Source: Candidatus Atelocyanobacterium thalassae (GTDB lineage Bacteria; Cyanobacteriota; Cyanobacteriia; Cyanobacteriales; Microcystaceae). Taken from it: 64,000 nucleotides of DNA. The position numbers and the translations under genes are program-made. Position 1 is the first letter of the stretch; each line of letters starts with the position of its first letter. Below are positions 3,368 to 59,862 of this stretch, piece after piece. The notes under the pieces were generated by a model. The model was given only the letters and a program-made list of their open reading frames with translations. It had not been told where the DNA came from and did no database searches. The stretch spans positions 224,001 through 288,000 of the forward strand of contig JBFPLN010000001.1 in assembly GCA_051971635.1 (NCBI GenBank). The letters run 5' to 3'.

Positions 3368-3407
3368 AATTGTATTTATTAATAATTTTTTATTAATAAA
3401 TACAATT
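3368..3407. repeat. Perfect inverted repeat, 18-bp arms, 4-nt loop (probable bidirectional terminator)
   Basis: aattgtatttattaataa-tttt-ttattaataaatacaatt between the convergent GT2 gene and mutS. Confidence 0.85.
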
Positions 3408-3494
3408 ATTCTGCTATGGTAACTATTCTAATCAGTTTAGTTTGATAAAAAAGATTCATGACAAATACCCGAACCTTTTTTACTAAGTATTAAA

Positions 3495-6059
3495 CTAATT
3501 ATTCTCCAGTTCATTAAGTTTCAATATAATCCTACTAGATTGACTAACCCTATCCATAATTTTTTTAGCTCTTATAGTTACAGAGGAAGGTAATCCAGCT
3601 AATTTGGCAACTTCAATTCCGTAAGACTTACTTGCACCTCCTGGACGAATTTGGTGTAGGAAAACGAGACTATCAGCCTTTTCCTCTACTATAGTTTGAA
3701 AATTAGCTATTTTAGGGATTTTATGAGCTAATTCATTTAATTCGTGATAATGAGTTGCAAATATAGTTTTTCCTTTAATTTCTTTGCTTAAATATTCTGC
3801 TATGGCCCAAGCTATAGAGAGTCCATCAAAAGTTGATGTTCCCCTGCCAACTTCATCTAATAAAATTAATGACTTTTCTGTTGCATGGTTAAGAATATTA
3901 GCAGTTTCATTCATTTCCACCATAAAAGTTGATTGCCCAGTTGCCAGATCATCTACTGCACCTACGCGCGTAAAAATACGATCAGTAATACCTACTTTTG
4001 CAGAAGCTGCTGGAACAAAGCTCCCAGCTTGTGCTAACAATTGAATAACGCCTATTTGTCTTAAATAACAACTTTTTCCACTAGAATTTGGACCCGTTAA
4101 AATAATTAAATTAGGATTTTCTAGTAATTCTTCAGAACTTTCAAGAAAGACAGAATTAGGTACAAAAGAGCCCAATGGTAATAATTCTTCAACTACTGGG
4201 TGTCTACCATCAGTAATGTTTAATGACTGATTTTCTAGAATTTGAGGTCGACAATAATCTTTGTTAACAGCAGTTATCGCAAAACTTAATAAGATATCAA
4301 TAGCTGCTATTGATTTAGCAATTTGACAGATTGCATGCCCTTCTTTCGCTACTTCTGAACGTAGCTTTATAAAAATTTCATACTCTAGTTTTTTAACAGT
4401 TTTTTGTGCGCTTAAAATACGAACCTCTCGTTCTTTTAGTTCAGGAGTAATAAAACGTTCTTCATTAGCTAATGTTTGCTTTCTGATGAAATAGTCCGGA
4501 ACCTGTGCTGATTTACTACGAGGTAAGCTTATGTAAAAACCAAAAGATTTACTATAACCAACTTTAAGGCTACTAATTCCTGTTTTTTTCTTTTCTGTTA
4601 ACTCCAGATTCGATAACCATTTACGATCATCTTCCATCTGTCTTCTCATACTATCTAGGTCTGTACTAACTCCATCTTTAATAATTCCTCCTTCTTTTAA
4701 TTTTGTCGGAAGAGACTCTATTAGATGATCACGAATATATTTTCCTAACTTCTCTAATTTCTTAGGCATATTACGTAAAGATTTAAAATAAGAAGATTTA
4801 CCTCGGTTCGCGAACTGTGATAAATCTTTTAATATTAATAGTGAATTAGCTAAACAAGATAAATGTCTTGCATTAGCTGTTCCTGAAGTGATTTTAGTAC
4901 TAATTCTTTCTAGATCATGTATGTTTGCTAATAATTGTTTAAGATCATGTCTTAATGTAATGTCTTCTACTAACTCTTCAACAGTGTTCTGTCTTTCAGT
5001 AATTTTTTCAATATTCAGTAGAGGTTCTATCAACCAACGCTGTAAATCGCGGGCTCCCATAGAAGTTTCAGGTTTATGGATAATTGATAGCAAAGAACCT
5101 TTAAAAGTGGAGTCTTTAATAGTTTTAGTTATCTCTAAGTTACGACGTGTTTGGTAGTCTATGATAAGAAAATCATTTAAACTATAGCTTTTAGGTAATT
5201 GCAATGTAATCTGTTGACCAATTTGTGTATCTTCTATGTATTTCAGTAATCCCCCTGCAGCACTAATAGCTAGAGGTGAATTATGACAGCCCATTCCTTC
5301 TATAGAGCTAACATTAAAAACATTTAAAAGTTTTTCCTTTGCAGTATCTAAATCAAAAGTCTTTTTTGTTCTTAAAGAATAGCAAAAGCAATCTGGCAGA
5401 GTATTTATTAATAGTGAAGATTTTTCTCCAGGACGAATTATTTTGCCAGCATCTATATCATTTACTGAAATAATAATTTCGGCTGGTTGCAATCTAAGTA
5501 ACTCTGAGTTAAGGTCATGCATTTCTATACTTTGAGTAGTATAAAATTCTCCTGTCGATACGTCTGCATAAGCAAGACCCCATAAATTATTTTTTATTAT
5601 TAATGCTACTAAAAAATTATTATTTTCTGGTATGAGTAATTCATCATCCATTAAAGTTCCTGGAGTTAACAACCTGGTTACACGTCTTTCCACCATACGA
5701 CCTTGAGCAAATGCTTCTGAAGAGTCTTCTACTTGATCACAGATTGCGATACAGTAACCCTTATCTATCAACAACTTAGCGTAACGATCTAGTGAATGAT
5801 GAGGAAACCCTGTTAAAGTAATTCTTCCAACTTTTTTCCCTGCCTCTTTACTAGTCAAAATTGTTCCAACTTCCTTAGAAACAATGACAGCATCTTGAAA
5901 AAAACATTCAAAAAAATCTCCTACCCTATATAGCAGAAGGGCATGAGAGTACTCTGCTTTAATATTTACATAATGCTGATACATTGGAGTTAAATTTTTA
6001 AAATCAAGGAGACGATAATCATTATGGGGAGATGCAATTTCTGCTTTTAAATTGTTCAT
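3495..6059 (-). CDS. mutS: DNA mismatch repair protein MutS
   Basis: TPMYQHY, YRVGDFFE, TGPNSSGKS, GQSTFMVEM, DEVGRGTS, FATHYHEL, SYGIEVAKLAG. Confidence 0.97.
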   Translation of the reverse strand: MNNLKAEIASPHNDYRLLDFKNLTPMYQHYVNIKAEYSHALLLYRVGDFFECFFQDAVIVSKEVGTILTSKEAGKKVGRITLTGFPHHSLDRYAKLLIDKGYCIAICDQVEDSSEAFAQGRMVERRVTRLLTPGTLMDDELLIPENNNFLVALIIKNNLWGLAYADVSTGEFYTTQSIEMHDLNSELLRLQPAEIIISVNDIDAGKIIRPGEKSSLLINTLPDCFCYSLRTKKTFDLDTAKEKLLNVFNVSSIEGMGCHNSPLAISAAGGLLKYIEDTQIGQQITLQLPKSYSLNDFLIIDYQTRRNLEITKTIKDSTFKGSLLSIIHKPETSMGARDLQRWLIEPLLNIEKITERQNTVEELVEDITLRHDLKQLLANIHDLERISTKITSGTANARHLSCLANSLLILKDLSQFANRGKSSYFKSLRNMPKKLEKLGKYIRDHLIESLPTKLKEGGIIKDGVSTDLDSMRRQMEDDRKWLSNLELTEKKKTGISSLKVGYSKSFGFYISLPRSKSAQVPDYFIRKQTLANEERFITPELKEREVRILSAQKTVKKLEYEIFIKLRSEVAKEGHAICQIAKSIAAIDILLSFAITAVNKDYCRPQILENQSLNITDGRHPVVEELLPLGSFVPNSVFLESSEELLENPNLIILTGPNSSGKSCYLRQIGVIQLLAQAGSFVPAASAKVGITDRIFTRVGAVDDLATGQSTFMVEMNETANILNHATEKSLILLDEVGRGTSTFDGLSIAWAIAEYLSKEIKGKTIFATHYHELNELAHKIPKIANFQTIVEEKADSLVFLHQIRPGGASKSYGIEVAKLAGLPSSVTIRAKKIMDRVSQSSRIILKLNELENN

Positions 6060-6068
6060 AATATTTTC

Positions 6069-6142
6069 TTAATGTGATATAATATTATATTACATTAATC
6101 TCAAATTAAGTTTAATTATATAAATAATATAATTAAACTTAA
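6069..6142. repeat. Twin inverted repeats (6069-6098, 15-bp arms with 1 mismatch; 6106-6142, 16-bp perfect arms)
   Basis: ttaatgtgatataat/attatattacattaa and ttaagtttaattatat/atataattaaacttaa immediately upstream of mutS. Confidence 0.75.
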
Positions 6143-6385
6143 ACTAATTAATAAAATAACTACCCATCTTTTAACATATTAAAAATTTTTAACTTTTTAT
6201 TAATTTATATGAAGGATGAGAGGGAGGACGTTTAAATTTTAATTACTCTCTCTGCAAAGCTTTTAGGTATTTGCTGCTAGAATGTACTCGTAATAAAATC
6301 AGATAAGCAATTATAATATGTTGAAGAATTAAGCTTAACAAATTATCAATTAAAATATCCTTTAATAAATATAGAGAAAGCAACT

Positions 6386-7123
6386 ATGACAGACGAAAAA
6401 CAACGAATAGAAATGAATACAGAAACCTCTGAAGTAGAAGATGTATGTATTAGCTCTTCTGAAGTTGAAGTTAATGAACAAATTGAGACAAATTCTGATG
6501 CTGATAAAAAATTAGAAGTCAATGAAAGTATTAATTCAACAAATTCTGAAGCAGAATCAGAAAAAGACTTAATCTCTAGTCTAAATGAAACAATAAGTAA
6601 CTTAGAAACTAAGCTAAAAGAGCATAGTCAACAATATGAAACCCTTAATAATAATAATCTTCGGCTTAATGCAGAATTTGATAACTACCGAAAACGTTCG
6701 ATAAAAGAAAAAGAAGATTTAGAAGTTAAGGTTAAATGTAAAACAATTAGTGAATTATTATCTGTTGTAGATAATTTTGAGCGTGCTCGTAACTCGATCA
6801 ACCCAACTAGTGATGGAGAAGCAACAATACATAAAAGCTATCAGGGAGTATATAAGGCACTAGTAGACAGCCTTAAGCGCCTGGGTGTTGCACCTATGCG
6901 TCCTGAGGGAGAAAATTTTAATCCTTTATATCATGAAGCTATGCTACGAGAATATACCGATGAATACCCAGAAGGAACTATTATTCAAGAACTAATGCGT
7001 GGCTATATACTAGGCGAACAAGTTTTACGACACGCAATGGTAAAGGTTGCCGCTCCTAAAACTTCTGATTCTTCAGTCCAGGAAGAAAATCTAGTAACAG
7101 ATGAAAAAGATTTGAAGAAATAA
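6386..7123 (+). CDS. grpE: Nucleotide exchange factor GrpE
   Basis: [44 protein letters not shown]. Confidence 0.96.
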
Positions 7124-7126
7124 GAT

Positions 7127-7192
7127 AACTAAATTAACTTTATATAAAAGTTAAAAAGAAATTTTTAACTCTTATATAAAGTTAATTTAGTT
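7127..7192. repeat. Inverted repeat, 31-bp arms (1 mismatch), GAAA loop
   Basis: aactaaattaactttatataaaagttaaaaa-gaaa-tttttaactcttatataaagttaatttagtt, starting 4 nt after the grpE stop. Confidence 0.9.
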
Positions 7193-7243
7193 CAAGATAA
7201 GTATCATCTATTCTTTAAAAATTTACAAAATTTAAAAATTATT

Positions 7244-8311
7244 TTAGTGCCTTGGTGGTCTTAAAGTAGCGGAACGATTTATTGGTCCTAAAATTTGGTT
7301 TAACTGACGTAATTGTTCAGGTGTACCCATACAAATAAGTAAATCTCCTGCCATTAATTCAGTTTCTCCTGTTGGTCCACCTAATAAGGCACCATCAGAA
7401 CGCCGAATAGCCAAGACCAGTGAACCTGACTGAAGCCTAAGTCTTGCCTCACTTAAAGTTTGTCCAACACAAGGGCAATATTTAGGATCAACAAGGAATT
7501 CTTCCATATAAAATGTACGATCACTACCAGTTAGAATGCCATCTACAAAATCCATAACTTGAGGCCTTAAAGCAGCAGAAGCAAGTCTCTTACCTCCCGT
7601 AATGTAAGGTGAAACAACAGAATCGGCTCCAGCTCTTTGCAATTTAAGAACAGCTTCTTCTGTACTAGCTCTAGCAATTGCTCTAATTTTTGGATTCAAG
7701 GTTTTCGCAGAAAGTACAGTATAGAGGTTTTCTGCATCAGAGGTTAAAGCAGAGACCAAACATACTGCCTTATCTATTTTGGCATTTATTAGACATTCAT
7801 CAAGAGTAGCATCTCCTTGGATTACGATATAGCCTAATTGTTTTGCTTCTTCTACCTGTTCAGGTCGAGAATCAATAATAACAAAAGGAACTTCTTCTGC
7901 AGTAAACTCTAATGCAACTTGACGAGCAGTACGTCCATAGCCGCAAACAATACAGTGATGTTCTAAAGTATCTATCAAACGTTTCTCCTGTCTTTGTCGA
8001 ATTCCTTCTTGAAAATAGCCTTGAATCAAGGCTTCTGTTAAACGATTAACAATATAACCAATGGTAATAACCCCCATCGAAATAAGAACAATAGTAAACA
8101 GTTTGGAATTATCGTCTAGAGGATGAACTTCTGAAAAACCAACTGTTGAAAGGGTTATCATGGTCATATATGCTGCTTCTGTTAATGACCATCTCTCGAT
8201 CAAATAATACCAAATTGTCCCAGAAAGAAAAACTCCTCCTAAAGCAAACGCTCCACCAATTAACTCTTTCCGTAATCGTTGATATTTTTCTTCAAAAGAA
8301 TATAAAGCCAT
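7244..8311 (-). CDS. Potassium channel protein with TrkA-N/TrkA-C (RCK) domains
   Basis: Two TM helices with pore motif TLSTVGFSE, CIVCGYGR Rossmann motif, GDAT, C-terminal TrkA-C. ATG at 8311 preferred over TTG at 8320. Confidence 0.88.
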   Translation of the reverse strand: MALYSFEEKYQRLRKELIGGAFALGGVFLSGTIWYYLIERWSLTEAAYMTMITLSTVGFSEVHPLDDNSKLFTIVLISMGVITIGYIVNRLTEALIQGYFQEGIRQRQEKRLIDTLEHHCIVCGYGRTARQVALEFTAEEVPFVIIDSRPEQVEEAKQLGYIVIQGDATLDECLINAKIDKAVCLVSALTSDAENLYTVLSAKTLNPKIRAIARASTEEAVLKLQRAGADSVVSPYITGGKRLASAALRPQVMDFVDGILTGSDRTFYMEEFLVDPKYCPCVGQTLSEARLRLQSGSLVLAIRRSDGALLGGPTGETELMAGDLLICMGTPEQLRQLNQILGPINRSATLRPPRH

Positions 8312-8471
8312 AAGAAACAACGAGAAATATGAATACTTATCTCCAAAATATTTGATTAAAATTAAGTAATATTTAGAATAAAATTATCTAATACGTTACT
8401 TTATCTCTTGGTTAATTTTAAGAGTAAGAAGAATACTTATATAAAAATTCAATCATGACCATATATCAAGA

Positions 8472-10904
8472 TTAACTACGGAGAGTAACGTTGAATTGAT
8501 CTACTAAAGTCTTGCGAATTCGATTATGAGTAGTTATTACATCTTTATCAGTTAATGTACGTTCATCAGAACGATAAAGCAAACTAAAAGCTAAATTTCT
8601 TTGTCCTTTTGGTACACTTTCTCCCCGATAATCATCAAACAGCTCTATTTCTTTTAATAAGTTTCCTCCTGCTGTTTTCATTTTTTCAATTAGTCTAGCC
8701 ACAGGAATATCTAAAGAAACAAAAAAGGCTAAATCTAATTCTATAGGAGGATAAGAAGAAAAATGTTTAAATACAGGTGTTAAGAGAGCTTCTTGACTAA
8801 GAGTCTGCAGTAAAACCTCAAAATTTAGCTCAAATCCATATACAGTACTAATTAAATCTAGTTCTTGGCATAATTGCGGATGTAGTTGCCCAAATACTCC
8901 TAAGAACTCGTTATTTAGCCATAAAGAAGCTGTACGTCCTGGATGTAACCTTTTATCTTGTTCATAAGCTTTGTATTCAACTACAATTTTGAATTTTTTA
9001 AAAACACTATCCAAAATGCCTTTCGCCTCATACCAAGTCATGGGAGGTAACTTTCCACCTGTTATCCAGCGTCCCTCGGTAAGAAAGTCACCTCCCATGA
9101 TACCGGCTAAACTTTCTAATTCTTGGCTTTGACCTTCAATGTTATAAAAAATTTTACCAATTTCAAATCCATTTAAAGATCCGTTACCTTGCGATTGGTT
9201 ATAAGCGAATGTACTAATTAGACCATCTAGTAAATTATTTCTTAAAGCTGAGTATTCTGTTAGCAAAGGATTTGCGAGAACTATATCAGCTTTTTCTGGT
9301 TTAACAAGAGAGTATTGTACCAATTCATGTAGACCAACAGAACGAAATGTTTCCCTAAGCTTACGCTGGATATAATATTCTTGAGAAAGCTTTCCAGGCT
9401 CTGTTTTATAAGGTAATTCATCACAAAAATTTCCATATCCGTAAATACGAGCTATTTCCTCTATTAGATCAATTTCTCTATATAGGTCTCGGTAACGATA
9501 AGATGGAATAACAACCGACCAGACATTGTTTGCATTATTAACTAAGTTTAGCGTACATCCTAAGTTAGTTAGAATATCGTGCACTTCTTCTGAAGTTATA
9601 AGAGATTTAAGACCATTTTTCCAAACTGGTCCTAAAAATTTATGGATACGTTCTAAACGTAAAGTTATTTTAGGAATATTAGTTTGAGAACGATTGTCAA
9701 CTATATTTTGAGAGACCAGAACTCCTCCAGCTAATTCGTGAATTAGGTTAATAGCATGCTGACAAGCCACCTCTAATTCGAATTGATTAACTCCTCTCTC
9801 ATATCTTATAGAAGCTTCAGTACGTAAGTTTTGACTTTTTGAAGAATGGCGAATAGCTACCTGATTAAATAGAGCAGTCTCTAGAAAAATATCTTTAGTT
9901 TGCTTATCAATTTCTGTTTCTTTTCCTCCCATAATTCCTGCAAGGGCAACAGGAGTATCATTAGAAGTAATTATTAAATTACCTTCATTTAACTTTCTAC
10001 TACAACCATCTAATGTTTGCAAAGTTTCTTTATCACTGGAAGAACGTACCTTAATGGTTAACTTATCCTTATTGTCTTTTAACTTTCTTAAGTCAAAAGC
10101 ATGCATAGGCTGTCCCCATTCCAGTAGGATTAAATTAGTTATGTCCACTATGTTGTTAATAGGTTCAATTCCTGAAGCTTTAAGTTTTTGTTGTAGCCAT
10201 ACTGGAGAAGAAGTTACTGTTACATTTTGAATAATAGTTCCAATATAAATTGGACAAGCCTTAATATCTTCAGTTTCTATTTTCAAAAAATCATTTCTAT
10301 TATCAAAAATAAAATTTTTGATAGTTCTAGGAGAATTAACTATATTTCCTGTTAGAGATGCTACTTCTCTAGCAATTCCTATCATGCTCATTGCATCAGG
10401 TCGATTAGCAGTAGGCATGACGCTTAATATAGTATCGTTTACGCCTAATATAGAAGCAACATTTTGGCCTACTTCTATCGTATCTCCTTTAAAAATATGA
10501 ATTTCGGACGATTCTTCTGATAGTCCAATCTCTGATAAAGAACAAATCATACCTTCTGATTTAATTCCTTGTAATTCTATTGAGCTGATCTTTAAATTTA
10601 TTTTAGATAAGTATGTTCCTAGAGTTGCAACAGGTACATATTTACCAATTTCAACATTAGGTGCACCACATACGATATTGAGTAAATTTTCTGTTCCAAT
10701 ATCAACTTTACAGATATTTAATTTTTGAGTTTTAGGATGAGGTTGACAATCTTTAATTAGACCAACTACAACTCCATCAGCCCATTCATAAAGATTTTCA
10801 TATTCATCTACCTCTAAACCTACAACTGTTAAGATATCAGCTAATTCCTCATGGGAAAAATTAAAATTTATTAGTTCCCGTAGCCACTTAACGGATATTT
10901 TCAT
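8472..10904 (-). CDS. pheT: Phenylalanine--tRNA ligase beta subunit
   Basis: MKISVKWLRE, IVCGAPNV, SEGMICS, TANRPD, GQPMHAFD, RYERG, DLIEEIARIYGY, C-terminal anticodon-binding domain. Confidence 0.97.
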   Translation of the reverse strand: MKISVKWLRELINFNFSHEELADILTVVGLEVDEYENLYEWADGVVVGLIKDCQPHPKTQKLNICKVDIGTENLLNIVCGAPNVEIGKYVPVATLGTYLSKINLKISSIELQGIKSEGMICSLSEIGLSEESSEIHIFKGDTIEVGQNVASILGVNDTILSVMPTANRPDAMSMIGIAREVASLTGNIVNSPRTIKNFIFDNRNDFLKIETEDIKACPIYIGTIIQNVTVTSSPVWLQQKLKASGIEPINNIVDITNLILLEWGQPMHAFDLRKLKDNKDKLTIKVRSSSDKETLQTLDGCSRKLNEGNLIITSNDTPVALAGIMGGKETEIDKQTKDIFLETALFNQVAIRHSSKSQNLRTEASIRYERGVNQFELEVACQHAINLIHELAGGVLVSQNIVDNRSQTNIPKITLRLERIHKFLGPVWKNGLKSLITSEEVHDILTNLGCTLNLVNNANNVWSVVIPSYRYRDLYREIDLIEEIARIYGYGNFCDELPYKTEPGKLSQEYYIQRKLRETFRSVGLHELVQYSLVKPEKADIVLANPLLTEYSALRNNLLDGLISTFAYNQSQGNGSLNGFEIGKIFYNIEGQSQELESLAGIMGGDFLTEGRWITGGKLPPMTWYEAKGILDSVFKKFKIVVEYKAYEQDKRLHPGRTASLWLNNEFLGVFGQLHPQLCQELDLISTVYGFELNFEVLLQTLSQEALLTPVFKHFSSYPPIELDLAFFVSLDIPVARLIEKMKTAGGNLLKEIELFDDYRGESVPKGQRNLAFSLLYRSDERTLTDKDVITTHNRIRKTLVDQFNVTLRS

Positions 10905-14443: not shown

Positions 14444-14526
14444 TTAAAATAATTTAAGTTTAAATTTCTCTATTACCTCTCCTAGCTATGATATGAGCTA
14501 AATTAGAGTTTTAATAATCGATAATC

Positions 14527-15786
14527 ATGATAAATTCACATTTAAAAAAAGTAGTTATAACAGGATTAGGTGCAATTACTCCTATTGGCAATAATCTTAA
14601 TGAATATTGGAATAGTCTAATGAACGGACGTAGTGGAGTCACCAAAATTAGCTATTTTGATGCTCAGTATCATGTTTGTCGCATTGCAGGAGAGGTTAAA
14701 GATTTCAACCCCTATGATTATTTAGATCGTAAAGATGTAAAGCGTATGGACCGCTTTTGTCAATTTGGGGTATCAGCTAGTTTACAAGCATTGGCTGATT
14801 CACAATTGGTAATTAATGAAGTTAATGCTGATCAAATAGGAATTATTATTGGTACCGGAATAGGTGGGGTAAAAGTTCTCGAAGATCAGCAAGAGATTTA
14901 TTTAAATCGTGGTCCTAGTCGTTGCAGCCCTTTCACAATTCCTACAATGATTGGCAATATGGCTTCTGGACTCACAGCTATTTATACAGGAGCTAAGGGC
15001 CCTAATACATGTACTGTAACAGCTTGTGCTGCCGGTTCTCATGCTATTGGTGATGCTTTTAGGCTCATACAACAAGGCTATGCTAAAGCAATGATATGTG
15101 GTGGAGCGGAAGCAGCAATTACTCCTTTATCATTAGCAGGATTTGGCTCTGCAAAAGCTTTATCCACCAGGAATAATAGCCCTGAAGAAGCTAGTCGCCC
15201 TTTTGATAAAGATCGGGATGGATTTGTTATGGGCGAAGGCTCAGGTATTTTAGTACTTGAAGAATTAGAGCATGCTCTTAAAAGAAAAGCTAAGATCTAC
15301 GGGGAAATTATAGGTTATGGTATGACATGTGATGCTTACCATATGACTGCGCCATCACCTGATGGTGATGGCGCTTCTCGAGCTATAAAACTTGCCTTAA
15401 AAGACGGTAATATTAATCCTGAACAAGTAGGCTATATTAATGCACATGGTACAAGTACTACAGCAAATGACATCATAGAGACGAAGGCAATCAAGAAAAT
15501 TTTTAAGGATCATGCTTATAATATTCCTATAAGTTCAACTAAATCAATGACAGGGCATTTATTAGGTGGCTCAGGAGGAATTGAGGCAGTGGCAACAGTT
15601 ATGGCTATTGCTAAACAAAAAATCCCTCCTACGATTAATCTCGACAATCCAGATCTTGAGTGTGATCTTGATTATGTTCCTGAAAGAAGTCGTTCGATAA
15701 AACTAGATATTGCATTATCTAATTCTTTTGGCTTCGGAGGACATAATGTTACATTGGCATTTAGAAAGTATAATGACAATGAGTGA
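14527..15786 (+). CDS. fabF: Beta-ketoacyl-ACP synthase II
   Basis: VVITGLG, TACAAG (catalytic Cys), INAHGTST, KSMTGHLLG, NSFGFGGHN; follows acpP. Confidence 0.97.
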   Translation: MINSHLKKVVITGLGAITPIGNNLNEYWNSLMNGRSGVTKISYFDAQYHVCRIAGEVKDFNPYDYLDRKDVKRMDRFCQFGVSASLQALADSQLVINEVNADQIGIIIGTGIGGVKVLEDQQEIYLNRGPSRCSPFTIPTMIGNMASGLTAIYTGAKGPNTCTVTACAAGSHAIGDAFRLIQQGYAKAMICGGAEAAITPLSLAGFGSAKALSTRNNSPEEASRPFDKDRDGFVMGEGSGILVLEELEHALKRKAKIYGEIIGYGMTCDAYHMTAPSPDGDGASRAIKLALKDGNINPEQVGYINAHGTSTTANDIIETKAIKKIFKDHAYNIPISSTKSMTGHLLGGSGGIEAVATVMAIAKQKIPPTINLDNPDLECDLDYVPERSRSIKLDIALSNSFGFGGHNVTLAFRKYNDNE

Positions 15787-15879
15787 TTAAAGTTTAAGAT
15801 ATTTTTTTAGAATACAAATAAAGCTTAACTAGTCAGTTAAGCTTTATTTGTATTCTAAAAAAATATCTTAAACTTTAAT
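15786..15879. repeat. Perfect inverted repeat, 45-bp arms, 4-nt loop
   Basis: 15786-15830 is the exact reverse complement of 15835-15879; begins on the last base of the fabF stop codon. Confidence 0.95.
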
Positions 15880-23490: not shown

Positions 23491-23533
23491 TCTTAACTTT
23501 TTTGATTAGTTTAAATAATTAAAAAAGTTAAGA
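23491..23533. terminator. Inverted repeat, 18-bp arms (1 G/T mismatch), between convergent pyrB and hemN
   Basis: tcttaacttttttgatta-gtttaaa-taattaaaaaagttaaga. Confidence 0.7.
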
Positions 23534-26746: not shown

Positions 26747-26800
26747 TAACTTCTATTATTATGTTTAAATATTAATATTTAAACATAATAATAGAAGTTA
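26747..26800. repeat. Perfect 54-bp palindrome with no spacer
   Basis: taacttctattattatgtttaaatatt|aatatttaaacataataatagaagtta. Confidence 0.95.
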
Positions 26801-34028: not shown

Positions 34029-34082
34029 ATTTAAAAAGAAAGAGGGACAATTTATATAAATTGTCCCTCTTTCTTTTTAAAT
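34029..34082. repeat. Perfect 54-bp palindrome with no spacer
   Basis: atttaaaaagaaagagggacaatttat|ataaattgtccctctttctttttaaat between the convergent DUF3318 gene and glnA. Confidence 0.95.
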
Positions 34083-40701: not shown

Positions 40702-41160
40702 ATGTCTAAACGAGTTCCAATGGTCCTAAACGAGTCTATTAGTAAACTAGGAAAGAGCGGTGATCTAGTAGAAGTTGCCCCAGGATATGCTAGAAACTAC
40801 CTTCTTCCTAAAAAATTAGCTGTTATTGCTACCAATAGCATTCTTAAGCAAGTTGAACAACGTAAGGAAAAAGAAGCTCAAAGACTTTTATTAGTAAAAA
40901 AAGTAGCAGAAGAACAGAAAGTTTCTTTAGAGACAATTAAATGTTTTACCATTAACAAGCAAGTTGGAGAAGGAGAAGCAATTTTCGGAACTGTAACTAA
41001 TCAAGAAGTCGTAGAGATTATACAAAAAACAACTAATCAAGAAATAGATCGCCGAGGTATCAACTTGCCTGAGATTAGTCAAATTGGCTCTTATGAAGCA
41101 ACTATAAAACTTCATCCAGAAGTAATTGCTACTATTGAAATTAAAGTAATACCTTCTTAA
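40702..41160 (+). CDS. rplI: 50S ribosomal protein L9
   Basis: [33 protein letters not shown]. Confidence 0.97.
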
Positions 41161-41523
41161 GAATATATTCTTTAGTTATTAGAGCTTTTTAAAAAGCTGG
41201 CTTAAATCAAGCAAGTATATAAAAGCTTCAGTATAATACTCTAAAATCTTGTAGCACTTAATTTTACCCTAAAGATTACTCATAATTATTTAAAAAATCA
41301 TTTAACTTTCTTTATTGAGAATATTCTAAATGAGAAAATTATTAACTACTTTTTGTTCTTTTACAAATTACTAAATAAAATTGTTTCTAAGGGTTAAATT
41401 GAAAATAATATTTTTCATTTTAGTCAATTCTTGCTTATTTATTTGAATAGGGAATTAAAAGTTACTTAGGTTTCTAAAATAACTTTATTTTTATTAAATA
41501 AAATATTTAAAGAATAATCTTAT

Positions 41524-41610
41524 TTAAATTTTAAAGCTACTAATTTTGACCTTTAGATTTATTTTAACAATATAAATCTAAAGGTCAAAATTAGTAGCTT
41601 TAAAATTTAA
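41524..41610. repeat. Perfect inverted repeat, 39-bp arms, 9-nt loop
   Basis: 41524-41562 is the exact reverse complement of 41572-41610; ends about 170 nt upstream of zwf. Confidence 0.95.
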
Positions 41611-41777
41611 CCATATGGGTAGAGAATATATTAAGACTTAAAATTTGACATTGGAAAGAAGCTACTGATGAATTACACAGTTTATTATTATCAAAGCTTA
41701 ATTTTGTGTAATAACTTCGCTTCCTTCAGAAAAGTTTTAGTTAGACTGAAAACTATTGAGGAGGCAAAGTAAAGCTT

Positions 41778-43307
41778 ATGGTAACATTATTAGAAAATCC
41801 ATTTCGCATTGGACTACGCCAAGAGAGAAACCCACAACCCTTAATACTAGTAATTTTTGGTGCATCTGGTGATTTAACCCAGCGTAAACTTGTTCCTGCA
41901 CTCTACAAAATGAAACAGGAACGAAGATTACCTCCAGAGTTAACTATAGTAGGGGTTGCTCGTCGGGATTGGAGTCACGATTATTTTAGAGAGAAGATGC
42001 TGGAAGGAATTGAAGAATTCTCTGATGGCATTGGGAATAAAGAATTGTGGGATGATTTTGCTGAAGGTCTATATTATTGTTCAGGTAATATGGATGAACC
42101 AGAAAGTTATCAAAAATTAAAAACTTTCTTAAAAGAGTTAGATAACAAGAGAGGTACTAGAGGCAATCGCGTATTTTATTTATCTGTTTCTCCTAGCTTC
42201 TTTCCACCTGGTATTAAGCAATTAGGTGCAGCCGGGATGTTAAATGATCCTTTAAAGCATAGAATTGTTATTGAAAAGCCTTTTGGTAAAGACTTAAGTT
42301 CAGCTAAAGTCCTAAATCGTATAGTCCAAAATGTTTGTAAAGAAGAACAAGTCTATCGAATTGATCATTACCTAGGAAAGGAAACTGTACAAAATTTATT
42401 AGTTTTTCGTTTTGCTAATGCAATTTTTGAACCTTTATGGAATCGCCAATTCGTAGATCATGTTCAAATTACAGTAGCTGAAACTGTTGGAGTAGAAGAT
42501 AGGGCAGGTTATTATGATACTTCTGGAGCTTTGCGAGATATGTTACAAAACCATCTCATGCAGCTCTTCTGTTTAACTGCCATGGAGCCTCCTAATGCTT
42601 TAAATGCTGATAGTATACGTAATGAAAAAGTTAAAGTGCTACAAGCAACTAACTTAGCTGATACTCATAATTTAGAGAATTCAGCTATTCGTGGACAATA
42701 CAAAGCAGGTTGGATGAAAGGCAAGCCTGTTCCAGGATATTTAGAAGAATCAGGAGTTCCTTTAAATTCTTCAACACCTACCTATGTAGCCATGAAACTA
42801 ATGGTAGATAATTGGAGATGGAAGGGAGTACCTTTTTACCTCAGAACTGGGAAAAGATTACCTAAAAAGGTAACTGAAATATCTATTCAATTTAAAGATG
42901 TACCATTTCTTATTTTTCAATCAGCAGCTTACCAAACGAATCCTAATATTCTAAGTATGCGTATTCAACCGAATGAAGGTATAGCTCTGAAATTTGAAGC
43001 AAAGATGCCAGGTTCGGAACTCCGTACTCGTTCAGTAGAAATGGATTTTAATTACGGCTCTTCATTCGGTATGACCACATCAGATGCATATCATCGTCTT
43101 TTATTAGATGCCATGCTAGGAGATCAGACTTTATTTACTCGTGCTGACGAGGTTGAAGAGGCATGGCGTGTTGTTAGCCCTGTTCTTTCTGTATGGGATA
43201 GTCCAGCTGAGCCTAACAGCGTTCCTCAGTATGAAGCTGGAACATGGGAACCTACAGAAGCAGAATTGTTAATGAATCGTGATGGTCGTCGTTGGCGACG
43301 CTTGTAA
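41778..43307 (+). CDS. zwf: Glucose-6-phosphate 1-dehydrogenase
   Basis: [43 protein letters not shown]. Confidence 0.98.
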
Positions 43308-46197: not shown

Positions 46198-46214
46198 AGA
46201 AAAAACTAATACTT

Positions 46215-52903: not shown

Positions 52904-52993
52904 ATGGATATTTTAGCTCTTGGTTGGGTTAGTGTATTAGCCTTGTTTAGCTGGTCTCTTGCCATGGTTGTTTGGGGACGTAACGGTTTTTAG
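52904..52993 (+). CDS. petN: Cytochrome b6f complex subunit 8 (not in the ORF track)
   Basis: Translates to [29 protein letters not shown] (29 aa), with the hallmark VVWGRNG. Confidence 0.96.
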
Positions 52994-53004
52994 GACTCTA
53001 TACT

Positions 53005-53139
53005 ATGCAAGTTCTCAACTTTCTTTTTTATACTGCTTTTGCTTTACTAGTCTTAGTGAGTATAGGTATTATTTATTTAACTGCTATGGATCGATATAGT
53101 CGTTATTTTCAAGAACAAACTAAAGAGAATAAGTTATAA
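53005..53139 (+). CDS. 44-aa single-TM small protein downstream of petN (not in the ORF track)
   Basis: MQVLNFLFYTAFALLVLVSIGIIYLTAMDRYSRYFQEQTKENKL*; 11 nt after the petN stop, AGGA upstream, hairpin at the stop. Confidence 0.7.
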   Translation: MQVLNFLFYTAFALLVLVSIGIIYLTAMDRYSRYFQEQTKENKL

Positions 53140-53177
53140 GATTTAAGGGAAAATTTTTTTCCCTTAAATCTTATAAC
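53133..53177. repeat. Perfect inverted repeat, 21-bp arms, 3-nt loop
   Basis: gttataagatttaagggaaaa-ttt-ttttcccttaaatcttataac; overlaps the stop of the 44-aa ORF. Confidence 0.9.
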
Positions 53178-53236
53178 ATAATGTAGCCAACATAAACAGA
53201 TTAAATCATATAATTTATTCATATTGTGTTCAACTT

Positions 53237-53280
53237 TAAAAATCAATAAGGCGAAATAAAATTCACCTTATTGATTTTTA
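53237..53280 (-). terminator. Inverted repeat, 19-bp arms (1 mismatch), just after the ycf54 stop
   Basis: taaaaatcaataaggcgaa-ataaaa-ttcaccttattgattttta; the C/A mismatch is a G.U pair in the minus-strand RNA. Confidence 0.8.
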
Positions 53281-53287
53281 GTTTTAT

Positions 53288-53623
53288 TTAGGTTCCAGAA
53301 GCAGAATTTACAGAAGCTAGTGGGTCTGGAATCGTAGAAGAAGGAGCTTGAAAATCTCCTTGAGCTACATATTCTAGTCGTAGTTTTAGCCAAGTGATAA
53401 AACCATGATCTGTTGAAATAATAGCAACACTTGGTTGAGGACACTGCGCTTTAATATTAGTGAACTCTGGAGCTTCAATAAAAGCAGGTTCTTTGACTAG
53501 CCAAAAATCAATTGCTTTATCTTTAGCTTGATGGTCTCTAACTCTTTCTCTCAATACTTCGTCTAAAGGTTCTTCTTCTAGAAGAAATTTTTGACTAGCT
53601 AAAACGTAATAATAGGTGTTCAT
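53288..53623 (-). CDS. ycf54: Ycf54, MgPME cyclase auxiliary protein
   Basis: YYYVLASQKFLLEEEPLDEVLRER, IDFWLV, FITWLKLRLEYV. Confidence 0.93.
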   Translation of the reverse strand: MNTYYYVLASQKFLLEEEPLDEVLRERVRDHQAKDKAIDFWLVKEPAFIEAPEFTNIKAQCPQPSVAIISTDHGFITWLKLRLEYVAQGDFQAPSSTIPDPLASVNSASGT

Positions 53624-53702
53624 TGCTTATTAATTAATCCTGATTGCCCAACTATTATTATTCAACTTAAGAATACTTTATTGGTCAAGATTAATTAATA
53701 AT

Positions 53703-54452
53703 TTATAATTCTCCTTTTATTGCTAGTTTCATTTCTTTAACAGCTTTTTCCATTCCTACTAATACAGCGCGACTTATGATTGTATGACCAATATTTAGCT
53801 CTCTAATTCCAGGAAGACAAGCAATAGGATGAACATTACTATAATTTAGTCCATGGCCAGCATTAATTTTTATACCCAGGTCGGTAGCTTTACAACATGC
53901 TAATTGCAACATTCCTAACTCGTCTTGACGTTGTCTATTATGAATAGAATTTGCATATTTTCCTGTATGTAATTCAATAAATTTTGCTTTAGTATTTTCA
54001 GAAGCCTGAATTTGACTCTCATCACTATCAATAAAAAGACTAGTAGGAATTCCATTATCTTGTATTTTGCCTACTATTTTTTTCAAGAATTCTAAGTTTT
54101 TTCGAACATCTAAGCCACCTTCTGTAGTTATTTCTTCACGTTTTTCTGGAACTAGAGTAATGTAATCAGGCTTGATATCAAGAGCAATTTTAACCATCTC
54201 TTCTGTGGCAGCAATTTCTAAATTCAAACGTGTTTGGATAATTTCTTTTATTAAGTATACGTCTCGGTCCTGAATATGTCGTCTATCCTCCCTTAGATGA
54301 AGAGTTATCCCATTTGCCCCACCCAGTTCTGCTAAAGTTGCTGCTGCAAATAGATTTGGCTCACTTGATTGTCTTGCTTGGCGAACAGTAGCAACATGGT
54401 CTATATTTACTCCGAGAGTTGGAAATTTAAGATTTGCTTTTTTATCAAACAT
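53703..54452 (-). CDS. pdxJ: Pyridoxine 5'-phosphate synthase
   Basis: [50 protein letters not shown]. Confidence 0.97.
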
Positions 54453-54480
54453 CTTATAATTAAGTAGAGAATTTGAACTT

Positions 54481-54522
54481 AAATAATAGTTAATATTATT
54501 TTTATAATATTAACTATTATTT
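54481..54522. repeat. Perfect inverted repeat, 19-bp arms, 4-nt loop
   Basis: aaataatagttaatattat-tttt-ataatattaactattattt upstream of pdxJ. Confidence 0.85.
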
Positions 54523-54605
54523 CTTAAAAAGAATCAGATATTAAATTTAAAATATAACTAAAATACTTTAGTATGTAATTTATATAGTCTTATTCAGTTG
54601 ATTAA

Positions 54606-54651
54606 AAAAGAAAGATAAATTATTACATAAAAAATAATTTATCTTTCTTTT
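54606..54651. repeat. Perfect inverted repeat, 19-bp arms, 8-nt loop
   Basis: aaaagaaagataaattatt-acataaaa-aataatttatctttctttt. Confidence 0.85.
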
Positions 54652-54697
54652 ATAAGATATTAGTTTAACGAATAAGAATTTTTAATCAAGATATACT

Positions 54698-56088
54698 TTG
54701 TCTCAAAATACCATTATGAATTTTTTATGTTTTCGGTATAATTTCATTTCTGTAACTATATTTTGTAGTACATTTATTTTTTTTATTTTCAGTAGTCTCA
54801 GACATATACTATTTCAGTCAACAGCTTGGGATTTAGCGATTTTCGATCAAGCAATTTACTTAATAAGTCAGGGTAAAGTACCAAATTCATCTTTTTTAAA
54901 TATTCATATACTAGGGGATCATGCCTCTTTAATACTTTACCCATTATCTTTATTTTATATACTTTACCCTTCAGTTTACTGGTTGTTTTTTATACAAGCT
55001 CTATCTCTAAGTCTTGGTATACTACCCATCTATTATTTATGTCAGAATCAAGGTTTAAATAAAAACTACTCACATACAATAAGCTTAGTATATTTATTTT
55101 ATCCATTAATTTTTAATATTAATTTATTTGATTTTCATCCCGATGTAATATTTGTTCCAGCAATTTTATTTGCTCTTTTAGCTATTTTTGAAGATAGATT
55201 GTATTTATTTATTTTGTCCATATTAGTTGCCTTAAGTTGCAAGAGTATATTCTCTTTGACAATTATTTTTATGGGTTTATGGCTATTAGTACTAAAAAAA
55301 AAAAATTTAGTTTATTTGCTCTAGGAAGTGGTTTTACTTGGTTTATTGTTAGCACTAACTTTATTATTCCTATTTTTAGTGATAACAAGGCCAATATTGA
55401 AAGACATCTTGAAAGGTTTAATCATCTTGGAAATACATTTCCTGAAATAATTTACAACTTAATCTTTAATCCTGTTTTAATTTTAGAAGGAATATTTAAC
55501 TTACCTAATCTAGAATATTTGTTACTGTTATTAGTACCTATCTTTTGGGGTATGTCTCTAGCTTCACTTTCTCCTTTGATACCTTGTATTCCTAGCTTTA
55601 CAATGAATCTACTATCCCAAAACATTTTACAAAAAGATCTTTTACATCATTATTCTTTACCAATTCTACCCTTTTTAATAATAGTTATCATTAAAACTAT
55701 AGCTCAAGAAAAAAAGTGGCCTTGGAAGAAATATGTTTTTTTATGGTCACTAATTTCTTTTATTATGTTTGCCAAATTAGGTAATTTTACATCTCGATAC
55801 TTAGTTTCTTTAGATACTTGGACAACAAATAAAGAAGCTATTAGTAAAATATCTAGCCAAAGTAGTATACTGACTCACTCCTATGTTGCACCTCATATTA
55901 GTCATCGCCCCACTGTAAAATTAATCGAGCAAGAAATGAACATAAATGTAGAACAATTTGATAATATTTTATTAAATGATCTTTTCTCACAAAGCGAAAA
56001 TATTAAAAAGCAAGTTCAGAAAAGTAATCATTTTTCATTAGTTTTTCAGAAAAATAATGTCTATCTTTTTAAAAAGCATAACATCTGA
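54698..56088 (+). pseudogene. DUF2079-family membrane protein split by a frameshift in an A12 tract (55294-55305)
   Basis: ORF 54698-55324 matches the N-half and ORF 55237-56088 the C-half of the paralog at 1-1291; A13 or A10 would fuse them in frame. Confidence 0.8.
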
Positions 56089-56251
56089 TTTTAGTAAATA
56101 GTATGTAAAGTTTTCAAAAATAAATATAATTTTGTTTACCAAATCAGCTCTCCTGAAGAATATTTAGATAAATATTTTTTATGTATTTAGTAGACATAGC
56201 TATTTTGAAAAATGTTCTTACTTAAATAATTATTAGTAATTGTAATTTTTA

Positions 56252-56455
56252 TTAGGAAATATTAGTTTTATTATTGGTGATAGATTTGTTGCTTGACTTA
56301 TCATGAGAATTCTCTTCAAAGAACACTGGTTTACTAGGGGTAACTGACATTTTATAAAAAATAGCATATGCTAAGAAAGAAATACCACCAAAAAAAAGAA
56401 AAACTCCGATCAATGCACCTGAAATAATCTGGGAAACTTTAGATAGACGATTCAT
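56252..56455 (-). CDS. Small membrane-anchored protein, probably the truncated N-terminus of a cyanobacterial SH3-domain protein
   Basis: MNRLSKVSQIISGALIG...TPSKPVFFEE: TM helix plus PxKPxFxEE motif, ending in a low-complexity linker. Confidence 0.55.
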   Translation of the reverse strand: MNRLSKVSQIISGALIGVFLFFGGISFLAYAIFYKMSVTPSKPVFFEENSHDKSSNKSITNNKTNIS

Positions 56456-56777
56456 ATTTATTTTGTAATACAATTATAAAAACTAGAATAGTAGTTAGCT
56501 ACATATTAATTATCTGAACTATATATGGAATTTGGTTAGAAATAAATCTGTTAGGACAAATTATAAGAATATTCTTTACTTTGCATTTAAGATATTACTT
56601 CTCACAACAGTCATTGCACATATAATCTCGATAGATATATCTTAGACTTAAATATAAAATTTTATATCTAATAAATGTAATCTTTATGATTTAGGTTTTT
56701 CATAAATTCATTAATTCAATATTTAACAATAAGTTCAATATAACAATTAAATCCTTGGTCCTAGTATTGTTAGTTTT

Positions 56778-57240
56778 TCAATGCCAAAAACTTTCTTACC
56801 AGATATTTCCCAACCAACACAATATCACTAATTGATAAAACCCTTTATCATAAACAAATACTAATTAGTAATATTGAACGTTGAGATAGTGTACTCTAGT
56901 GTTGAAGTTTGCTGCTTTGAATATAATCCTGTGTCTATTAAACAGAGAAAAAGGTCTTGTTCTTCAAAAATTTCGATAAAAATGACATATATATCTTTCT
57001 TATTATCCAAATTTCTCTAATAATGGTTCTAAAACATTTTTATATACAATTTTAAATTCTAAAAAACGATGAGCTTTTTCAGTAATCATTTTCAATGATT
57101 TTGAAGAATCAAAAGAATTTTTAGGTTATAAAAACTTTATTATCCATAATCTGTTCAACAGATATCCTACCCTCTAGCTCTCGAGATAAAAAAACTAAAT
57201 TATTACATCTAAAGAGTACTCTTAGATATTCATTCGCACA
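56778..57240 (-). pseudogene. Possible eroded gene remnant, identity unknown
   Basis: Protein-like segments interrupted by stops and a frameshift (e.g. AHRFLEFKIVYKNVLEPLLEKFG**ERYICHFYRNF*RTRPF...FKAANFNTRVHYLN) within a 1.5-kb gap lacking credible genes. Confidence 0.3.
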
Positions 57241-57982
57241 TAAAAAGTATTAGAAATGTAATTAATAAATAAAACGGCACTACAAATAATAGTATCTTGA
57301 AAATTTTATGTAATTATTTCTACTTTCTTTAATATATAAGATAATAACTGTTAACATCTCAGGCATTGAATTATTTTCTTAAAAAGAATTAAGATAATTT
57401 AGCTTTATTTATATATAGTAAGTAAGTTTAAACTTGTCTTAGTGGAATTTTTCTTAGTTATTAAAATCTCCTTTTTTAAAAATTATTAAATAAGTCTTCC
57501 ACTAAAATAAATATGTATAACTTTTATATTAAAAAATCTTGTCTAACTGTTTTAAAATTATTTTTTAATTTTTAAGGTACTTTATTACGATGTCTAAGTA
57601 CAATAAATTTATCATTTTCTTATCATGCTTGATGCCCATAAGTAAGTAATTAAAGATTCCACTATAAGTTAGTTTAATTCCAACAAAAATAACAAAGTTT
57701 GTACGAATAAAGCTAATTATCTTTTTTATACTATGAGATATTAAGAATAGAGTATTCAATATAGTCTCAGATAATTTTTAGGTTAGTAATTTAAATTTTT
57801 AGTAATTTCTAGTCTTTAGAAAAATAAAAGCAATATATTGTTATATTAAAAACTATGAAATCATAAATTTTGTACAGTATCTAAATAGTTAAGTCATTTT
57901 TATGATTGATTTTATTTAAATAAATTATTCTCTCCAGAAGATGAGAGAATAATATGTCCAGTAGTTGTGAGGAAAACTTTAA

Positions 57983-59803
57983 ATGCGGCTATCCCAAGTG
58001 TTGTTTGTGACTTTACGTGAAGATCCTGCTGAAGCAGAAATAATAAGTCATAAATTGTTGTTAAGAGCTTGTTATATTCGTCGTGTTAGTAGCGGTATTT
58101 ATTCTTACTTGCCTTTAATGTGGCGAGTATTGCAAAAAACTTCTCAAATAATACGAGAAGAAATGAATTTAGTTGGAGCTCAAGAATGTTTATTACCTCA
58201 ACTACAGATATCAGATTTATGGAAAGAATCAGGTAGATGGGAAACCTATACTAAAGCTGAAGGAATTATGTTTTCCCTAATAGATAGGCAAAAAAAAGAA
58301 TTAGCTTTAGGGCCAACTCACGAAGAAGTTATTACATCAATAGTTAGAGACATGATTACATCATATAAACAAATGCCTCTAAATCTATATCAAGTTCAGA
58401 CAAAATTTAGAGATGAGATCCGTCCTCGTTTTGGTTTAATGAGGAGTAGAGAGTTCATCATGAAAGACTCTTATTCTTTCGATGAAAATTTAGAAAATTT
58501 ACAGAAAAGTTATAGTGCAGTGAGCCAAGCCTACTGTAATATTTTTGAACGTTGTGAACTGTCTTTTCAAATTGTAGAAGCAGACTCTGGAGCAATAGGT
58601 GGTCTGGCTTCTCAAGAATTTATGGTTTTAACAGATGTTGGAGAAGATGAGATCTTATACACAGAAGATGGTAGTTATGCAGCTAATATAGAAAAAGCAA
58701 ACTCTATACCTTATCCAGAAAATATATCACCTTTTGATAGTTATGAAGAGAGAGAAACTCCAAACTGTAGCACAGTTAAAAAACTGTCTGAAATACTCAA
58801 TTGTTCTTGTAGCAATATTGTTAAAAACTTATTATATAAAGCAACTTATGATAATCAAAAAAGTATATTAGTTTTAGTAAGTATTCGAGGGGATCAAGAT
58901 GTTAACGAAGTAAAACTTAGTAATGAATTAAACTATTTAGCTTCTAAGTACGAAGCATTAACATTATTGACTTTACAAATCTTTGATCAAGAATCTATAT
59001 CAAAGTTAGCTGATAATATTCTACCATTAGGTTATATTGGTCCAGATATAGAAGCTACTTGCATTAGTTCTAAAAAAGATATCAAATTTTCTCTTTTAAA
59101 AATTGCAGATAAGACTGTTGTTAATCTTAAAAATTTTGTTACTGGATCTAATAAGTTAGAGCATCATATTGTAGGAGGAAATTGGGGGCAATCTCACAAA
59201 TTACCAGAGTTAATTTTTGATATTAGAAAAGCTAAAAAAGGTGATAGAGTTTCTGAAAATAATCAAGCAAAGTTAGTGAGTAAGAGAGGCATTGAAGTAG
59301 GACATGTTTTTCAATTGGGAACAAAATACTCAGAAAAAATGAGGGCTACTTTCACTGATAAGGATGGTGAGGAAAAACCAATTATGATGGGATGCTACGG
59401 TATGGGAGTTTCCCGTTTAGTTCAATCTGCTGTGGAACAAAATCATGATAAAAATGGAATTATTTGGCCACTTGCAATAGCTCCTTATCACGTCATTATT
59501 ATTGTTCCAAATATAAAGGAAAGAAAGCAGATAGAAGTTGCAGAAAGAATCTATCATGATCTAAACAATATTGGGATAGAAACTATTTTAGATGATCGTA
59601 ATGAACGAATAGGTTCTAAATTTAAAGATGCTGAGCTTATTGGAATTCCTTATCAAATAGTAACAGGAAGAACATTAAAGGTTGGTAAAGTGGAAGTAGT
59701 AGAAAGAAGAACAAAAAATTCACAAGAAATTATCATTGAAGAATTACCTAAATTTTTTAATGAAATTCTGAAAAATATTAAGTTATTACCAAAATTTATC
59801 TAA
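57983..59803 (+). CDS. proS: Proline--tRNA ligase
   Basis: MRLSQ...[46 protein letters not shown]. Confidence 0.97.
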
Positions 59804-59804
59804 A

Positions 59805-59862
59805 ATATATATTAAAGAAGTTATGTATAGTCTGAACTATACATAACTTCTTTAATATATAT
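59805..59862. repeat. Perfect inverted repeat, 27-bp arms, 4-nt loop
   Basis: atatatattaaagaagttatgtatagt-ctga-actatacataacttctttaatatatat, starting 2 nt after the proS stop. Confidence 0.93.

Follow-up and report, generated by a model that had tools for sequence, protein, structure and literature searches.

Long AT-rich palindromes in UCYN-A genomes: template switching as their likely source and possible retention as 3' stem-loops behind genes

The intergenic spacers of Candidatus Atelocyanobacterium thalassae (UCYN-A), the group within which the nitroplast has been placed (PMC11637426), carry long AT-rich inverted repeats that we analyzed here in a window of 64,000 nucleotides (C1:224001-288000) and across the whole assembly that contains it (hereafter G000; 1,469,411 bp, 31% G+C, 6 contigs), whose size matches the one on record for UCYN-A (PMC5101192). 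We consider it rather probable that these repeats are one-off palindromes whose arms are rewritten by template switching and that those located just behind genes are kept as mRNA 3' stem-loops. Template switching and plastid-like 3' stems, put forward as two alternatives in a preliminary description of this DNA, are thus best combined as a generator and a filter rather than treated as rivals. The palindromes are real and genome-wide, their mechanism is well supported, and their retention at gene ends adds a testable twist.

Repeats were scored +1 for a match and -3 for a mismatch, with a threshold of at least 15 for the main census. All 14 inverted repeats of the preliminary description are present in the window, with arms of 15-45 bp and loops of 0-9 nt, and we also recovered its division into 10 perfect repeats and four with one transition mismatch (those starting at 6069, 7127, 23491 and 53237; Table 1). 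The 15,986 bp of spacer in the window contain 12 repeats at the census threshold versus a mean of 0.01 and a maximum of 1 in 100 order-3 Markov simulations, and 20 repeats at a score of at least 11 versus a mean of 1.04 and a maximum of 4. The excess over shuffled controls, by which the preliminary description had proposed to judge the matter, holds genome-wide, with 110 repeats within the spacers of G000 versus 0-1 per run in 12 dinucleotide and 6 local-block shuffles. Two sister genomes of the same genus, G001 and G002 (1.44 and 1.49 Mb), are colinear with G000 with a mean protein identity of 86-89%, and the sister-lineage results cover 1.40 Mb of each (97 and 94%, respectively). The totals amount to 131 (G000), 124 (G001) and 168 (G002) repeats, or 4.2-5.2 per 10 kb of non-coding DNA, and perfect arms of at least 20 bp were counted 44, 41 and 71 times, the longest reaching 61 bp. 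As had been noted by eye, the arms have no common consensus: across the 131 arms, the longest word found in two of them measures 13 nt, versus 12-14 nt in 3 shuffled sets, and a REP/MITE family was rejected on this shared-word test, there being no dispersed copies either. Among the BLAST matches listed for the arms, we found 14-20-nt AT-rich matches and one duplicated 19-mer in G001, and at the gathering threshold the sole Rfam match over the window is a tRNA, hence no known RNA family at the palindromes. It is hardly credible that the palindromes are fold-backs created by assembly or amplification, or a degenerate REP/MITE family. G000 is indeed in 6 contigs and the analysis was made from assemblies rather than reads, but orthologous sites in two other assemblies hold homologous, letter-diverged repeats (55 and 39 homologous spacer pairs), which argues against fold-back chimeras, as do, for an artefact of either kind, the strong 3' bias of the repeats and the lack of words shared between arms.

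Comparison of the three lineages suggests that template switching likely rewrites the arms from one another, with DNA polymerase as the presumed agent; gene conversion on an extruded hairpin would leave a similar pattern. Indeed, aligning the spacers of sister strains in search of compensatory changes, as the preliminary description had advised, revealed that, where a pair is ancestral in two lineages, double changes that preserve pairing number 62, 44 and 105 in the third versus an upper independent expectation of 12, 8 and 29, an excess of 3.6-5.4 times. An A>G+C drift among these double changes was rejected as a signal, its ratio being equal to that of the flanks. In paired columns, the change per site is 0.115, 0.099 and 0.176 in the arms versus 0.131, 0.114 and 0.190 in plain spacer, the arm rate being slightly under that of the spacer for paired columns and slightly over it with loops included. 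Such a rate, together with the paired double changes, implies that the letters drift and that pairing is re-established from time to time. The earlier claim that the palindromes are kept perfect while the spacer erodes is therefore half right: the arms change as fast as the spacer, many repeats have decayed or been deleted in a sister, and perfection comes and goes in episodes. Moreover, of 114 homologous sites, 14 have their inner region in inverted orientation, versus a mean of 4.4 and at most 9 in 200 shuffles, and versus 0 and 6 in controls that were only reversed or only complemented, respectively; 33 sites are clearly direct and the remainder undecided. The window accounts for three of these inversions, situated in the spacers around 38.3, 44.8 and 53.2 kb. 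Copying also reaches coding DNA: 14 repeats at 13 loci have at least 10 pairs inside a reading frame, every one at its 3' end, and the coding arm is the more conserved in 11 of these 14. At C2:33541-33662, the repeat of G000 (61-bp arms) and its G002 ortholog (55 bp) are both perfect despite 5 differences among the 44 shared coding bases of the coding arm, each of which (counted by eye) is mirrored in the spacer arm. We relied on this locus instead of the figure of 33 of 34 coding changes mirrored, which is partly circular because repeats are defined by pairing. Three features of template switching are thus found, i.e., perfect copies beyond chance, concerted changes without conservation and inverted loops, and its described outcomes include new and extended stems, compensation over several bases and inverted loops (PMC8794818; PMC5941160). 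The local origin and template-switch correction that had been suggested for these palindromes are accordingly supported by the flipped loops, the paired changes of both arms and the copies made of coding ends.

Regarding their position, a repeat is found in 46 of the 227 convergent spacers of G000, in 55 of the 683 tandem ones and in 12 of the 232 divergent ones, and 54 of 73 tandem-spacer repeats are closer to the upstream stop. Genes were called with a purpose-written codon-score script, which leaves some starts and small genes uncertain. In promoter-free DNA of the three genomes pooled (a profile that excludes the 120 nt before starts as promoter zones, and spacers over 2.5 kb), there are 1.84 repeat centres per kb at 30-60 nt past the stop versus 0.28 in divergent spacers and 0.16-0.24 at distances over 150 nt. 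Since this peak persists with promoter zones removed, promoter avoidance is not its explanation. Proximal repeats (234 versus 159 distal ones in the three genomes) also last longer: 49 of 76 proximal but 13 of 40 distal repeats of G000 have a repeat at the same place in G002 (p=0.0016), at least 80% of pairs are kept in a sister in 166 of 466 proximal versus 42 of 270 distal comparisons, which are not independent, and the same pairs, strictly defined, are retained from G002 to G000 in 40 of 84 versus 6 of 61 cases. Median protein identity is 94-95.5% for genes that have a repeat in each of the three lineages, versus 87-88% for genes with none, and the 37 scanned upstream genes of three-lineage repeats include glnA, dnaK, two groEL, petA, petE, psaF, hupS, pnp, gnd, tkt, rpmA and nifT, many of which typically have abundant products. 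The 3' density peak and the three-lineage repeats after highly conserved genes suggest that the latter repeats may be retained as 3' stem-loops, as in plastids. Judged from sequence, the probability that gene-end repeats would function as RNA 3' signals seems a little better than even.

Several properties of the stems bear on such a role. Proximal repeats have a median arm of 21 bp and a median predicted stem energy of -24.6 kcal/mol, and arms are 19.5-20% G+C, under the 22% of spacers. Proximal left arms are A-rich (135 with A>T versus 84 with A<T), which is the polarity expected where a U-run closes the stem, and G+C peaks at mid-stem. A-runs are present in 97 and T-runs in 55 of the 234 proximal left arms; no U-tract was found outside the repeat, after the stems, and the U-run may lie inside the right arm of proximal repeats. 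In profile searches, Rho was not found and RNase III and PNPase are present. A promoter scan of 33-45.5 kb was uninformative (45 sites versus 54.7 in shuffles).

Outside UCYN-A, the comparison covered 100 kb each of free-living and diazoplast-like DNA. G078 and G072, closed genomes of 2.5 and 2.8 Mb with nifH intact and psbA broken (in G000, nifH was found and psbA was not), look like diatom diazoplasts, a symbiosis reported as independent of UCYN-A (bioRxiv 10.64898/2026.03.19.712447). With 14 repeats in 60 kb of G078 and 11 in 40 kb of G072, i.e., 5.4 and 4.7 per 10 kb of non-coding DNA, repeat density is near equal in diazoplast-like and UCYN-A genomes, about 4-5. In the diazoplast-like sample, 22 of 26 intergenic repeats are distal, with a slight 3' excess (0.93 versus 0.57 per kb). 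No repeat was found in 16.5 kb of non-coding DNA of G046, G071 and G283, taken as free-living from their size and, for G046 and G071, from an intact psbA, versus 7.4 expected (Poisson p=0.0006), a comparison made on small samples and confounded by G+C content (31-35% in free-living non-coding DNA versus 22-26%).

The preliminary description had assumed a repair-reduced symbiont, an assumption contradicted by the presence of mutS, mutL, recA, recJ, uvrD, polA, mfd, priA and RNase H. The sbcC and sbcD genes, whose loss might have explained the tolerance of long palindromes, are both full-length and uninterrupted in G000, G001 and G002, with open frames of 1011 and 420-426 aa without stops (sbcC profile scores of 445-455 bits are slightly under the curated cut-off of 478.5). 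Tolerance through SbcCD deficiency is ruled out insofar as whole frames in three lineages indicate functional genes, and a shared loss of repair or RNA genes was rejected, sbcC, sbcD, recJ, mutL, polA, uvrD, mfd, RNase H, priA, recA and RNase III being found in every genome searched. Of note, one recJ paralog of G000 (C5:145909-147579) scores 256 bits versus about 500 for its counterparts, its frame being open. It is hence very improbable that the palindromes result from the loss of SbcCD or repair functions, or from DnaA-independent initiation with frequent fork restarts. Besides sbcC and sbcD, nine further repair genes are intact; recQ was not found in G000 but is kept in diazoplast-like G078 and G072; xseA was not found in the symbionts but is missing from free-living G071 too, and DEDDh exonucleases (PF00929) are missing from free-living G046 as well. 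The replication mode finds some support in the lack of GC skew and in dnaA, the one loss found common to both symbiont lineages: dnaA was not found in G000, G002, G078 and G072 and is present in free-living G046 and G071, its absence being already known for these symbionts (PMC7198777). However, dnaA-less G283 (4.2 Mb, 34% G+C) has 0 repeats with a score of at least 12 in 20 kb versus 5.3 expected at the symbiont rate, and dnaA loss as a sufficient cause is thus unsupported by this one small sample. In addition, dnaA was not found in the sampled genomes of cyanobacterial families f17 (0/15), f48 (0/22) and f8 (0/2), and f48 may be an addition to the dnaA-less free-living clades already known.

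In the mechanism that we propose, a short seed repeat, arising by chance or from an old terminator, would let the growing strand fold back or cross the fork, and one arm would be copied onto the other, the stem being perfected and lengthened and the loop sometimes flipped; this pattern is the one seen in the alignments, the enzyme being presumed. Between switch events, point mutations decay the stems, as is seen in sister lineages, where many are lost or deleted on one side. Repeats located no more than about 100 nt from a stop codon are several-fold denser and also persist more often, chiefly behind highly conserved genes. The presumed cause is that, in a Rho-less genome drifting toward AT, an A-U stem of 20 bp (about -25 kcal/mol) would stop 3' exonucleases or serve as a two-way terminator irrespective of its letters. 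For the excess of symbionts over their free-living kin, drift and AT richness would be the default explanation, dnaA loss being seemingly insufficient.

Several observations weigh against this combination of generator and filter. Among 1,053 orthologous spacers, 289 have a repeat (score of at least 14) in at least one lineage, with 40 in three, 60 in two and as many as 189 in one only, and single mismatches (272, 225 and 375) far exceed double changes, pairing being thus often lost. Fixes are confined to one arm in 16 of 52 repeats versus 8.6 expected, fewer than would result from a single clean copy event per site; recurrent events and noise in the alignments blur this count. With regard to replication, no direction of copying was seen, derived arms being split evenly with no GC skew or origin for orientation (cumulative GC skew is flat in G002). 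Since the pooled counts come from lineages that share ancestry, their p-values exaggerate the significance. With regard to the filter, strict same-pair retention from G000 to G002 differs weakly (35 of 76 proximal versus 14 of 40 distal), distal left arms lean A-rich too (83 versus 61, p=0.08), and expression level is deduced solely from protein conservation and gene names. A preference for G-U pairs on the transcribed strand was found neither among mismatches of present repeats (34 G-U versus 36 A-C) nor among decay changes near stops (125 versus 101).

The same 3' bias would also be expected without any selection if old terminators served as seeds or if mutation were linked to transcription. 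An unlikely, though by no means negligible, alternative is that template switching acts by itself and leaves neutral scars, which crowd at 3' ends because of relic-terminator seeds or mutagenic transcription ends. The lack of arm conservation and of G-U bias, the lineage-specificity of most repeats and the distal position of most diazoplast-like ones agree with it, and quasi-palindrome correction is reported to be raised by transcription in yeast (PMC5941160). It does not account, however, for the persistence of proximal repeats and their link to highly conserved genes, nor for the recurrence of non-homologous repeats in one and the same orthologous spacer (13-19 cases per lineage pair) or for the spacer at 53.1-53.3 kb, which has one hairpin behind each converging gene. 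Conversely, selection on RNA could suffice, long A-U stems having replaced G+C terminators through point mutations and stepwise compensation, as has been proposed for the palindromes of Blochmannia (PMC3017870). This we judge improbable and largely refuted already by the loop inversions: the 3' position, A-run polarity, median stem energy and the terminator-like repeat at 34029 would fit, but flipped loops, perfect arms of 45-61 bp, coding changes tracked by spacer arms and perfect repeats in divergent spacers are left without an account, and G-U pairs are not favoured. Template switching followed by retention at gene ends is thus the reading that we keep.

Table 1. Inverted repeats of the window and their state in the sister genomes G001 and G002.
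Position	Repeat	Location	Sister genomes and remarks
3368..3407	perfect, 18 bp	convergent spacer, glycosyltransferase gene (+) / mutS (-)	not in G002; G001: other repeat, 29 bp, copy of mutS coding 3' end
6069..6098	15 bp, one transition	divergent mutS/grpE spacer	not in G002; G001 unaligned there
6106..6142	perfect, 16 bp	divergent mutS/grpE spacer	not in G002; likely young
7127..7192	31 bp, one transition	convergent spacer, 3 nt past grpE stop	homologous, letters differ: G002 30 bp, G001 21 bp
15786..15879	perfect, 45 bp	begins at fabF stop codon	predicted RNA stem -55 kcal/mol; G002 degenerate (15-bp core); deleted from G001
23491..23533	18 bp, one transition	convergent pyrB/hemN spacer	G002 perfect, 19 bp; G001 deleted
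26747..26800	perfect palindrome, 27 bp	convergent spacer behind acsF	overlapping, rewritten repeats with long loops in sisters
34029..34082	perfect palindrome, 27 bp	between DUF3318 gene (+) and glnA (-)	A-run / G+C core / T-run layout; perfect in all three lineages
41524..41610	perfect, 39 bp	rplI/zwf spacer, 363 nt past stop, 167 nt before zwf start	present in three lineages, 85% three-way identity
44764..44801	perfect, 14 bp	behind opcA	absent from the preliminary description; 10-nt loop inverted, G000 versus G002
53133..53177	perfect, 21 bp	overlaps stop of conserved 44-aa open reading frame (53005-53139) downstream of petN	G002 imperfect; G001 decayed
53237..53280	19 bp, one transition	7 nt past ycf54 stop	loop inverted versus sisters
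54481..54522	perfect, 19 bp	divergent pdxJ/DUF2079 spacer	homologous sequence imperfect in both sisters
54606..54651	perfect, 19 bp	divergent pdxJ/DUF2079 spacer	imperfect in both sisters
59805..59862	perfect, 27 bp	1 nt past proS stop	G002: differently extended 20-bp repeat; G001: one arm only

The window holds ordinary cyanobacterial genes (mutS, grpE, fabF, glnA, zwf, opcA and proS), and its palindromes illustrate the diversity of fates described above. At 34029, the letters differ between lineages through paired changes with at least 23 shared pairs, and the layout, together with a terminator-like match, resembles a two-way terminator. The repeats at 54481 and 54606 are, by alignment with the sisters, quasi-palindromes perfected in the G000 lineage alone. 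The 41524 repeat is an exception, sitting in strongly conserved non-coding DNA, and possibly has a regulatory role for zwf-opcA; Rfam returned generic hairpin matches alone for it, far under the gathering score. The spacer around it (41160-41778) is far above other spacers in three-lineage conservation, being invariant over long stretches that surround the 39-bp repeat and precede zwf; it contains a 34-codon open frame at 41668-41772 and, in G001, a 24-nt direct duplication, and may include a regulatory leader or small RNA.

Further observations concern neighbouring genes and the genome at large. At 52904-53139, petN (29 aa) is followed by the conserved, membrane-like 44-aa frame, with no Pfam match at E 1e-12. 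A gene for a DUF2079 membrane protein is split across two overlapping frames at 54698-56088, a second DUF2079 gene lying at 236-1291; in the orthologous frame of G002, a 40-bp palindrome overlaps and alters the C-terminal codons. The 1.9-kb AT-rich spacer before proS (56088-57983, 23% G+C) resembles decaying gene remnants and has several lineage-specific palindromes in G002. About 8 perfect 15-16-bp repeats lie wholly within called reading frames of contigs C3, C4 and C6 of G000 (e.g., C3:554806 and C6:77741) and may represent proteins edited by template switching. The HIP1 octamer is rare in G000, with 22 copies in 1.47 Mb.

Our literature searches listed no earlier report of palindromes or inverted repeats in UCYN-A, diazoplasts or Paulinella, bearing in mind that subscription papers and supplements may mention them. 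Template switching, Blochmannia palindromes and plastid 3' repeats are already known, and what is new is the occurrence in UCYN-A and the proposed gene-end filter. Long perfect palindromes that stand alongside intact sbcCD, copy coding tails and are able to touch protein C-termini are among the clearest natural records of template switching; they also call for caution, compensatory changes in such genomes being no proof of RNA structure. If gene-end repeats do act as RNA ends, a young nitrogen-fixing organelle would show how plastid-type 3' stem-loops may originate and remain perfect without conserved sequence, which would be relevant to the expression of nitroplast or nif genes in other hosts. 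More tentatively, and with doubts prevailing, organelle 3' hairpins might originate from replication error: template switching in captive cyanobacteria would create them, deletion would clear the deserts and selection would keep self-repairing RNA 3'-end signals behind busy genes, such that a single convergent path would lead through three stages, namely diazoplasts (repeats mostly in deserts), UCYN-A (gene ends) and plastids (few fixed repeats, loops that flip), the two younger ones sharing a density of about 4-5 repeats per 10 kb of non-coding DNA.

Among known systems, template switching and quasi-palindrome correction share with the UCYN-A repeats homogenised arms, one-step creation or extension of stems, inverted loops and paired changes without conserved sequence, and the origin of stems by this route has been treated by Monttinen and Loytynoja (2022, PMC8794818). 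The scale differs from that of Escherichia coli MG1655 (4.6 Mb), in which, as reported by Lavi et al. (2018, PMC5941160), none of the short perfect repeats that they found has arms of 20 bp or more, whereas G000 has 44 perfect repeats of 20-61 bp in 1.47 Mb. The genomes of Blochmannia ant symbionts, reduced and AT-rich as well but from an unrelated phylum, each contain 6-20 long palindromes (62-136 bp), almost all located between genes (Williams and Wernegreen, 2010, PMC3017870); these were ascribed to selection, and the accessible parts of that study do not analyze origin, orthology, loop flips or 3' position. REP/MITE families are likewise extragenic, palindromic and often 3' of genes, unlike UCYN-A repeats in having shared sequence and dispersed copies. 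Cyanobacterial intrinsic terminators share the position past stops, the A-run/stem/U-run polarity in many cases and the two-way layout in convergent spacers, but the short G+C-rich stem of a canonical intrinsic terminator is not found: the stems are long, their G+C content is near 20%, and the repeat is not followed by a U-tract. Intrinsic terminators are reported to end just 22% of units in free-living Synechococcus (Cascino et al., PMC12642595). Finally, plastid 3' inverted repeats are described as 19-24-bp, often unbroken, low-G+C stems in 3' untranslated regions, linked to small inversions, which fold in vivo and set 3' ends (bioRxiv 10.1101/2025.08.06.668526). The UCYN-A repeats, known from sequence alone and turning over fast between sister lineages, differ from them in these respects and share with them a long low-G+C stem shortly past the stop, with a proximal arm of median 21 bp and a peak at 30-60 nt.

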